From Dictyostelium discoideum (lineage: Eukaryota): a stretch of 64,000 nt of DNA. Positions 48,257 to 51,014 of this stretch are shown piece after piece. The translations under genes were made by a program, and so were the position numbers. Location of the stretch: positions 32,001 through 96,000 of the forward strand of contig CM000151.3 of NCBI GenBank assembly GCA_000004695.1, written 5' to 3'. How positions within the stretch are numbered: position 1 is the first letter of the stretch; each line of letters starts with the position of its first letter. The notes beneath the pieces were generated by a model. That model saw only the letters and a list, made by a program, of their open reading frames with translations, made no database searches and was not told the origin of the DNA.

Positions 48257-51014
48257 TTATTGTTTACTTTTAATTTCTTCAATTGAATTTTCAATACTTT
48301 CAATTTCTTTTAATTTTGCATTATAAACTTTAGAAGTTTCATCGATTTTAGATTGTTGACGATCTCTTAAAACTTTATTTGGAATTGATGCAAAGGTTGT
48401 TTGAAGTTGTGTCAATTGTTTCTTTATAGTTTCAGATTCTTGTTGTGATTTTCTTAATAAACTAATTAAATTAATTAATTCTGTATTATCGGGTGCACTT
48501 GGTAGTGGTACTGGTGGTGGGGTTGAAATAGTTGGTTGTGAAGATGATGAAAATGAAGATGATGATGAAGCTGTTGTTGTGGTTGTTGTTGCATTTATTG
48601 TTGCATTTGTTGCATTTGGTATTAAACTTGTTGTAGTTGATAATATTGGAGAATTTGTTTGATTTGTTGATGATCCGATATTAATTTGTGGTGTGGTTGG
48701 TAGCATCTCTCCACTATTTGAAATTGAAGAAATTGGTTGAATTGATGACGATGCTTGATTAAGTGGTGATGATGTTTTACTATATATTGGTGGTGTAGTA
48801 GTTGTTGTAGTTGTAGTTGTAATTGGTGGTGTTGAAATTATTGATTGTTGAATTGGTGGAGTATTAAGTGGTTGTTGTTGTTGCTGTTGTGTTGATGTTT
48901 CAATGTTAGTGGTACTATTAGATAATGATGACGCACTTGAATTTAAATTTTGATTTGGTAAATCTTGTTGCTGTTGGCCTATTGTTATTGTTATTGTTAT
49001 TGTTATTGTTATTGTTATTGTTATTGTTATTGTTATTGGTATTATTATTATTGTTATTATTATTATTGTTATTATTATTATTATCTATTTGGATTGGTTG
49101 TGATGGGTCAGTTAGATTTTGATTATTTTGATAATCTCTATCTCTATCTCTATCTCTGTGTTCTCTATGTTCTCTTCTTCTCTTTTTATGTTCCCTGTGC
49201 TCTCCATCTCTACCTTCTCTATCACCTCTATCTCTGTGTTCTCTGTCACCTCTATCTCTGTGTTCTCTGTCACCCCTATCTCTATGTTCTCTGTCTCTAT
49301 GTTCTCTTCTTTCACTTCTATGTTTTTTCCTTTCTTCATGAGATCTTGGTGAAGTTGGTTGTGGTTGTTGTTGTGGTGGTAGTTGTGATTGTTGTTGTGT
49401 TGGTGTTGTTGGTTGTTGTAAAGGTGAAGAAGGTACACCACCAACATTAATATTAATACCACTACTACCAATACTTTTTGAAAGATCATCAGGAGATTTA
49501 AATGATGAATCCACAGTAGCAGGAGAAGAAGGTATTGGAAATTTAATTTTCAAACTAGTTGGTGTACTACCAGTTGAACTACCCATACCACCAATACTAT
49601 TACTACTATTAATTGGTTGAATTGATTGTGTTGATGATTGTAATGATTGTTGTTGTTGTTGTTGTTGAGATTGCTGTTGTTGTTGTTGTTGAGATTGCTG
49701 CTGTTGTTGTTGTTGTTGTTGTTGATTTTGATTTTGATTTTGAGTATTTACAAAGTTACTACTGAATGTTCTACTATTACTGCTGCTACTACTACTACTA
49801 CTTCTATCACTTCTTGATCTTCTATCTCTCTTTGAACTATTTGGAGATCTTTCTTTATCTAAAGGTGATCTATCAGACATTGAAATTGGTTTACTTCCAC
49901 TGAAACGAGTTAATCTATCATCATCACTAAATTCATCATCCAAATTAATCATATTCATATTATTATTATTATTAAAATTATTATTCCTATTTCTATTATT
50001 ATAACTATTATTATTATTATTATTACCAAATGATTGATAATTATTTGTAGATTTAACTTTTAGAGTTCTAATTTGATTTTCAATTTCATTATCATCTAAA
50101 CCAGATTCATCATTACTATCCATATCTTCAATAACGATTTGATCATCAGCTTTCTCTTCAAAAATAACGGGTTCTTTTGAATTTTGACCAAATAAGTCAT
50201 TACCATATTTATCCTTTAAATCTGCCAATGATACAAATTCAATCTCTTCTGAATCTGCATAACCTGGTTTAATTAATCTAACTAATTCCTCTTCAATCTT
50301 TGCTAATTCCGTAATTTTATCCCTATTATATGTTTTAAACTTTCTTTTTACTATATCTTTTGTTGCTGCTGTTAAACCTGTTTGTAATATATTATTTATT
50401 GTATTTGGTGCCGCTGTATTTGGTAATGGTGTCGTTGTGGTTGTGGTTGTAGTTGTAGTTGTATTATTATTATTAGAAGTATCCATTAAATCATCTTGGT
50501 CAGATTGTGTTGGTGGAGGTGGTGGTGGTGGTGGTGGTGGTGGATTATCATTTACAATTATCATTTGACCGATATCAGCAGTTTTATAAAAGTTTACTCT
50601 ATCAAATGTTTTATGAGATTCAACAATACATGGTAAATCAACCAAGTTTGCATTATATTCTTGATCACCAAATTTAATTTGAATTTGTCTATCATTTTTA
50701 AAATGAAAATCAACTGGAATATCCATTTGTTTTTGTTTAATCATATTTCTAACTTGATCGGCTAAATGTAATGGTAATCTAAATAAAATTTGATCCTCTG
50801 ATTCATCTGGTCTACCATATCCTTGTAATCCACCTTCAATTGGTATATTTGTTATATTATTATTATTATAGTTATAATTTCCATAGTTATTATTATTATT
50901 ATTATTACTACTAGTATAATTATTATTATTATAACTACTACTACTACTACTATAATTTCCTCCAATAGAATTTGTATTGACTTCTATAAAATCGAAATTA
51001 TTATTATTATTCAT
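48257..51014 (-). CDS. taf7: TFIID subunit TAF7 (TAFII55) homolog; annotated ORF 48918-51014 (698 aa) plus a probable C-terminal continuation in another frame down to 48257
   Basis: QILFRLPLHLADQVRNMIKQKQMDIPVDFHFKNDRQIQIKFGDQEYNANLVDLPCIVESHKTFDRVNFYKTADIGQMIIV matches the TAF7 N-terminal domain nearly residue for residue (ILRLP..., LVDLPC..ES.KT.D...FYKTADI). The downstream frame (..QQQDLPNQNLNSS...TTPQINIG...KQLTQLQTTFASIPNKVLRDRQQSKIDETSKVYNAKLKEIESIENSIEEIKSKQ*) is open from about 49005 to 48257 and ends in a coiled coil, as TAF7 C-termini do. The two frames differ by 1 nt within the (AACAAT)n repeat 48975-49060. Confidence 0.7.

Follow-up and report, generated by a model that had tools for sequence, protein, structure and literature searches.

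INTRODUCTION

Proteins of the TAF7/TAFII55 family carry an N-terminal TAFII55_N domain and, in dictyostelids, Physarum, and other eukaryotes, terminate in a coiled coil that bears a PN..h..R motif. The homologues recovered by our profile search are mostly ~300–500 amino acids long, and our search of the literature on Dictyostelium TAF7 found nothing relevant. The reference genome of D. discoideum AX4 has been shown to contain frameshift errors: those in four kinase genes were put right on the evidence of reads and ESTs, and others had been hidden by gene predictors through bogus introns or truncation (PMC1420674). Independent sequence is provided by a Nanopore-plus-Illumina study of ten isolates, comprising the laboratory strain AX2-214, CR116C, OT3A, M4B, S6B, three citrinum-clade strains, and two other species (PMC12745789).

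Here we describe the TAF7 gene on the minus strand of a 64,000-nt stretch of D. discoideum AX4 chromosome 2, hereafter referred to as the window. The D. discoideum protein is an ordinary member of the TAF7/TAFII55 family, though a repeat-laden one. It shares the N-terminal TAFII55_N domain and the C-terminal coiled coil with its relatives but differs from most of them in its length of 918 aa, the surplus of which consists of Asn, Gln, Thr, and Pro homopolymer tracts and an arginine-rich mixed-charge block; the length of these insertions differs among strains and species. As read in the window, the gene is broken close to a hexamer repeat. The presumed error in TAF7 resembles those documented previously in the AX4 reference (PMC1420674) in that it adjoins low-complexity sequence and is resolvable by independent sequence, but differs in that the correction comes from sibling-strain and wild-relative assemblies rather than from the original reads or ESTs.

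TWO READING FRAMES OF TAF7 IN THE AX4 REFERENCE

The products of the neighboring genes in the window are exact matches to XP_645635, XP_645637 (gafA), and XP_645638 of AX4 chromosome 2. The reading frame that opens with the ATG at 51014 (frame A) runs along the minus strand to a TAA at 48920–48918 and encodes 698 aa (48918–51014). Its residues 73–250 (50265–50798, minus strand) match TAFII55_N (Pfam PF04658) with an E-value of 4.9e-37 and a score of 127.5 bits against a cut-off of 25, confirming the claim of an earlier note on this DNA that a TAF7-homologous open reading frame stops at 48918. A second frame (frame B), shifted one base 3′ of frame A, is open from 49084 to a TAA at 48259–48257. 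The note had placed the opening of this frame at 49005 and the overlap of the two frames at about 90 nt; the end at 48257 was given correctly, but the frame opens at 49084 and both frames are open over ~165 nt (49084–48921). Downstream of the hexamer repeat, frame A reads into the spurious tail RPTATRFTKSKFKFKCVIII and a stop, while frame B gives GQQQQDLPNQNLNSSASS… and stays open over 240 codons (48257–48979, minus strand, including the TAA) through a Gln/Thr/Ser/Pro-rich linker into a coiled coil.

The openness of frame B over 240 codons was matched in none of 20000 shuffles, and its probability estimated from composition is ~1e-7; the remaining two frames contain 33 and 24 stops over 49084–48257. 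The codon log-odds score, which was trained on nine other open reading frames from the window, ceases to favor frame A and comes to favor frame B between ~48990 and ~48960, and frame A is negative from ~48970. The GC content stays at the coding level (~0.31–0.34) from ~48375 to ~48975, is 0.27 in 48300–48449, and falls to 0.10 only below ~48300, so that coding-level GC ends at ~48300–48375, near the TAA of frame B.

Frame B ends in a coiled-coil segment of 77 residues (48260–48490, minus strand; DNTELINLISLLRKSQQE…IPNKVLRDRQQSKID…KLKEIESIENSIEEIKSKQ). With the final 85 residues of frame B (48260–48514) as query, phmmer matched ten TAFII55_N proteins among 162 sequences at their extreme C-termini, with E-values from 5e-23 to 2e-3 (P0004, 5e-23; P0002, 2e-18; P0001, 3e-16; P0003, 8e-15; Physarum P0005, 7.5e-10; and five more), which bears out the TAF7-like coiled coil that the note had seen at the end of this frame. 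The shared C-terminal pattern is …LRK.QQE..S.KKK….PNK.L+DRQQ.KID….KLKEIE.LE…. A frame B-like C-terminus occurs together with TAFII55_N in a single polypeptide in Polysphondylium violaceum (705 aa), Heterostelium album (761 aa), Cavenderia fasciculata (747 aa), a fourth amoebozoan (474 aa), and Physarum (455 aa), and the TAF7 of P. violaceum is encoded by one unbroken open reading frame. Because these orthologues carry the C-terminal segment of frame B in one polypeptide with TAFII55_N, we conclude from homology that frame B is the true C-terminus of TAF7.

TAF7 IN OTHER DICTYOSTELID ASSEMBLIES

The comparison loci were reached via the neighboring gafA and isochorismatase genes. Each comparison assembly contains one TAF7 gene between a VMA21-like gene and gafA on the same strand. 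The VMA21-like gene of the window (47477–48109; Pfam VMA21, E 2.3e-17) is convergent with TAF7, as are its counterparts in P. violaceum and in the six group-4 loci that span the region fully (L003–L005 and L007–L009). The VMA21-TAF7-gafA-isochorismatase core is also kept in D. firmibasis (L010), where the upstream flank differs. Conservation of the VMA21 neighbor within dictyostelids supports the orthology of the TAF7/TAFII55 genes by synteny.

Seven complete genes were translated: three of D. discoideum (JBTAPE, L003, 918 aa; JBTAPG, L004, 933 aa; JBTAPF, L005, 924 aa), one of D. cf. discoideum (JBTAPH, L007, 863 aa), two of D. citrinum (JBTAPK, L008, 836 aa; JBTAPL, L009, 843 aa), and that of D. 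firmibasis (GCA_036169595.1, L010, 995 aa). An eighth gene, from D. cf. discoideum JBTAPI (L006, 927 aa), is incomplete at the end of its locus, which is reached before VMA21, and stands outside the seven. TAF7 is a single open reading frame with no internal stop in all seven complete genes (836–995 codons), and every one of them enters (N/Q)QQQQDL(P/S)NQNLNSS, which is frame B, after the Asn run where this is present; D. firmibasis has no Asn run at the junction and is still in frame. The coiled coil is near-invariant among the Dictyostelium species compared, with at most three substitutions in 77 residues. The note had proposed to see which downstream frame other Dictyostelium species conserve; without exception, the orthologues conserve frame B.

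AX2 and AX4 are sibling laboratory derivatives from one isolate. The species labels of the JBTAP* assemblies agree with the isolate set of the Nanopore-plus-Illumina study (PMC12745789). Identity between the window and JBTAPE is ~99.6% overall, and AX4 and AX2-214 were reported to be 99.5% identical at another locus (PMC12745789). Given the make-up of the deposited set, and given its own near-identity to AX4, JBTAPE is probably AX2-214. The comparison assemblies are not error-free: their homopolymers are systematically shorter, as seen in 11/11 length differences between JBTAPE and the window.

THE LESION AT THE EDGE OF THE HEXAMER REPEAT

The hexamer tandem repeat occupies 48980–49084 (TRF: period 6, 17.5 copies, 92% matches, 105 bp) and includes a perfect (AACAAT)9 at 49034–48981 on the minus strand. 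Frame A translates the repeat as poly-Asn; its translation in frame B, (Ile-Thr)n, we judge implausible. In JBTAPE, TAF7 occupies 2885–5641 (2757 nt) with no internal stop, and throughout this 2.76-kb gene JBTAPE and the window are of equal length at every homopolymer and microsatellite tract. Within the gene the two differ at three sites only (49133, 49086, and 48979–48978), which span 155 nt.

Only the last of these breaks the frame. At 48978–48979 the window has CC on the plus strand, which is GG on the gene strand, where four assemblies have a single T, which is A on the gene strand. The gene strand of the window thus reads AAT AGG CCA ACA GCA ACA AGA at the junction, vs AAT AAC CAA CAG CAA CAA GAT in L003, L004, L005, and L007; in the remaining three of the seven assemblies, the Asn run is shorter or absent and the junction is equally in frame. 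The change, AGGCC in the window vs AACC in JBTAPE, amounts to a substitution plus one extra base. The AGGCC state of the window across 48970–48990 is AATAGGCCAACAG, and the alternative state is AATAACCAACAG. GG against an A that is shared by four independent assemblies does not have the form of a homopolymer artefact.

Both the lesion and the crossover in coding potential fall on the 3′ boundary of the repeat (48979/48978), the lesion following directly on the final AACAAT unit and lying outside the repeat. The note had ascribed the break to a 1-nt indel in the hexamer repeat; a net 1-nt error or polymorphism does divide the gene from its genuine C-terminus, but it sits at the 3′ edge as GG for A rather than in the repeat. 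The second base private to the window, at 49086, is 107 nt upstream of the junction and synonymous (gene strand ATA vs ATT elsewhere, Ile). The third, at 49133, is 154 nt upstream and changes the product (gene strand TAT, Tyr, vs AAT, Asn, or AGT, Ser, in all others, in the context DRDRDRD-N/S-QNNQN). We observe a conserved frame, an exactly defined discrepancy, and a state of that discrepancy which is private to the window. With the junction as in the other assemblies, the whole TAF7 coding region (48257–51014, minus strand) is a single exon of 2757 nt, encoding 918 aa and a stop.

CAUSE OF THE FRAME BREAK

Two mechanisms could in principle join frames A and B during gene expression, and we give hardly any credence to either. 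In programmed +1 ribosomal frameshifting, the ribosome would slip at AAU-AGG-C; the required shift is indeed +1, the junction reads AAT AGG C, and AGG is rare in the genes of the window (0.9 per 1000 codons, vs 16.1 for AGA). The TAF7 junction resembles the Ty1-type site (CUU-AGG-C) in its final four bases, AGG-C, and in the direction in which the ribosome would shift. In the Ty1 mechanism, however, the P-site CUU re-pairs on UUA, whereas the P-site AAU of TAF7 is not slippery and is unable to re-pair on AUA. AGG is used in frame five further times within TAF7, so that AAU-AGG-C does not combine a slippery P-site codon with a uniquely hungry one. Moreover, no stimulatory element was found, and the site is absent from the other assemblies, all seven of which are plainly in frame; this lack of conservation effectively refutes frameshifting. 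Splicing of a very short intron fares no better, with a likelihood that we regard as negligible. Excision of either of two intervals on the minus strand would fuse frame A to frame B, namely one of 22 nt at 48936–48915 (GTGCGT…TAATAG, 36% GC; product of 911 aa) or one of 49 nt at 48932–48884 (GTCATC…ACAG, 33% GC; product of 902 aa), and no other GT..AG intervals restoring the frame were found. Dictyostelium introns are typically 60–250 nt long with <15% GC, a range in which neither candidate falls (PMC1420674). Such an intron would also keep the non-conserved RPTATRFTKSKFKF peptide and delete the frame B residues DLPNQNLNSSASS that are found in all orthologues, and the orthologous genes have no intron at the junction. 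We therefore reject both candidates for their size, for their GC content, and because conserved residues would be lost, and the note was right that no GT-AG intron fits.

It is a more serious matter, though still unlikely, that AX4 or its parent AX3 really carries the lesion, so that TAF7 is truncated after poly-Asn and lacks the Thr/Ser/Pro linker and the coiled coil, frame B being intact solely because the mutation is recent. A state private to the window is also what would be expected of a lineage-specific mutation, an undecayed frame B is compatible with a very recent event, and TAFII55_N, which lies upstream of the break, would stay. AX3 was derived after mutagenesis. Clustered mutagenesis of the nitrosoguanidine type in the AX3 lineage is nevertheless a poor fit, as the window-private changes are mostly transversions and indels and not G:C-to-A:T transitions. 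Over the 12.5 kb shared by the window and JBTAPE there are 18 difference events, of which 11 concern homopolymer length; the seven others are at 47316, 47744, 47839–40, 48978–9, 49086, 49133, and 55384. Wherever other assemblies were alignable at these seven sites, as DNA or protein, all of them side with JBTAPE and the window stands alone, for example with P90 and K122 instead of T/A and Q in the VMA21-like protein. A real lesion would hence have to be accompanied in the window by two more private changes within 155 nt and a further four in 12.5 kb, none of them present in a near-identical assembly. At the nuclear mutation rate measured for D. discoideum, 2.9e-11 per site per generation (PMC3466296), it is implausible that sibling laboratory strains would have come to differ by seven real private changes within 12.5 kb. 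Loss of a coiled coil that is near-invariant from D. discoideum to D. firmibasis and recognizable as far as Physarum would be unexpected in a healthy laboratory strain, and frameshift errors have precedents in the AX4 reference (PMC1420674). The genuinely truncated TAF7 that the note had offered as an alternative is therefore improbable, with seven other assemblies intact and the discrepancy private to the window.

Base-call errors in the Sanger-era reference are strongly favored because the seven changes are one-sided, because three of them fall within 155 nt beside a hard-to-sequence repeat, and because they are mostly transversions and indels. From these comparisons we infer, with high confidence, that the frame break is a base-calling or assembly error in the AX4 chromosome 2 reference. 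The reference would have miscalled AAT-AAC-CAA-CAG as AAT-AGG-CCA-ACA-G, with a net gain of one base at 48979/48978, and 49086 and 49133 would be further miscalls in the same poorly resolved stretch flanking the 105-bp hexamer repeat. The corrected product would be a single-exon TAF7 (TFIID subunit 7) of ~918 residues, which is predicted to consist of TAFII55_N, Asn/Gln/Ser-rich linkers, an Arg-rich mixed-charge block with KKRRR, a Thr/Ser/Pro-rich linker, and the C-terminal coiled coil.

THE ARGININE-RICH MIXED-CHARGE BLOCK

Arginine-enriched mixed-charge domains and RD repeats drive length-dependent condensation of nuclear speckles in animal cells (bioRxiv 10.1101/771592; PMC9324279). TAF7 contains an Arg-rich mixed-charge block of 69 residues (residues 559–627; 49134–49340, minus strand; HEERKKHRSERREHRDREHRDRGD…EHKKRRREHREHRDRDRDRD), 91% of which are H, R, D, E, or K (R25, E12, D12, H10; 36% Arg, 35% Asp + Glu). 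Part of it is encoded by a 24-bp tandem repeat (49162–49295, 5.7 copies, 78% matches), which specifies REHRDRGD units and is adjoined by (ATCTCT)4 at 49134–49157; the repeat reported in the earlier note is thus real. The block forms a long alternating run of Arg and Asp/Glu, with REHRDRGD repeats and a pure (RD)4, as in the arginine-enriched mixed-charge domains, a likeness that is compositional only; it differs from them in being unusually His-rich (10/69). A role of the TAF7 block in speckles or other condensates may be hypothesized by analogy. The look of a metal-binding insertion, which had also been suggested, received no support from anything tested.

The block is not confined to D. discoideum, contrary to the suggestion that it is absent from the TAF7 of other lineages. 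It is present in all seven Dictyostelium assemblies examined, with varying copy number: there are three REHRDRGD units in AX4 and JBTAPE and two in JBTAPG and JBTAPF, and the block of D. firmibasis is a pure run of RD dipeptides (~17 units). The TAF7 of H. album has a longer block at the same position, of the DREHR/GGEHRDRDRERDRGDRGDRD type (DREHRTGGEHKDREHRHGGEHRDRDRERDRGDRGDRD…), and in TAF7s of more distant Amoebozoa the equivalent position is taken by an R/K-E/D mixed-charge block. A KKRRR-type basic cluster within the block is conserved throughout, and its sequence suggests a putative nuclear localization signal.

IMPLICATIONS

The practical value of this finding is a precise correction of the reference, from AGGCC to AACC on the gene strand at 48979–48976; bases 49086 and 49133 are probably wrong as well. 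AX4 gene models would be incorrect if they cut TAF7 at 698 residues, split it, or bridge the junction by a mini-intron. The seven differences private to the reference within 12.5 kb suggest a density of base errors in this region of chromosome 2 that merits systematic polishing with the new AX2-214 assembly.

Biologically, the finding is of slight importance. There is only a slim chance that AX4 (and possibly AX3) has a TAF7 without the deeply conserved coiled coil, with AX2 and the wild strains examined being full-length; if so, the two main laboratory strains would differ, unnoticed, in their basal transcription machinery. The mixed-charge block of dictyostelid TAF7, conserved and at the same time hypervariable in length, may offer a modest lead on the disordered regions of TFIID.

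Gene neighborhood and further differences of the reference

In addition to the gene order around TAF7, we compared the window base by base with the AX2-like D. discoideum assembly (L003). The VMA21-like protein gene (47477-48109, + strand; XP_645635, DDB_G0271358) encodes Pro90 and Lys122 in the window (sites 47744 and 47839-47840), whereas Thr/Ala and Gln are found at the same positions in the AX2-like assembly and in all six further Dictyostelium assemblies. Sites 47744 and 47839-47840 are probably two additional base errors of the AX4 reference, both of them changing an amino acid. 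Non-homopolymer differences private to the window were also observed at 47316 and 55384 (n = 2), where the other assemblies side with L003: at 47316, in the intergenic gap between the acyl-CoA oxidase and VMA21-like genes, the ACACACAC run of the window is one base short, and at 55384 the window has A while the others have G. In homopolymer length, L003 and the window differ at 11 intergenic A/T runs in all (48182-55948), and in each case the L003 run is the shorter one. The pattern resembles a systematic compression of homopolymers by Nanopore sequencing in L003, or over-calling in the Sanger reference.

The neighborhood includes the C-terminal exon of an acyl-CoA oxidase gene (46188-46883), gafA, which encodes a GAF domain (51383-51859), the gene for an isochorismatase-family protein (52159-52710; DDB_G0271336), and that for a HUN-domain (ubinuclein/HPC2-like) protein (53049-54746). 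The gene order of the window is conserved in the six assemblies with loci spanning the whole interval (L003-L005 and L007-L009); the locus of D. cf. discoideum JBTAPI (L006) ends short of the VMA21-like and acyl-CoA oxidase genes. This L006 locus carries a DDE_1 transposase gene (471 aa; 4711-6518, - strand) between the gafA and isochorismatase genes, which is present neither in the window nor in the remaining assemblies. Compared with D. discoideum, the two D. citrinum loci are several kilobases longer 3' of the isochorismatase gene (L008 7552-10959 and L009 7552-9175), and the D. firmibasis locus (L010) is without the HUN-like gene at the corresponding position and has an additional small ORF upstream.

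TAF7 in H. album and D. firmibasis

The annotated H. album TAF7 (P0002) has a 30-nt "intron" excised at 3198-3227 of its locus, L002 (gene nt 1198-1227), which is in frame and open, encodes VYNFNNYNKQ, and is much too short; the annotation probably contains a spurious mini-intron here. A genuine 78-nt intron (GTAAGC...TTTAG) lies within the TAFII55_N region of the same gene.

The D. firmibasis TAF7 (995 aa; L010 2935-5922, - strand) contains a poly-Asn stretch of ~100 residues, and also an expansion of pure RD dipeptides (~17 units). Its TAFII55_N domain and coiled coil remain nearly invariant, and the D. firmibasis protein illustrates how extremely the disordered parts of TAF7 can vary in length.
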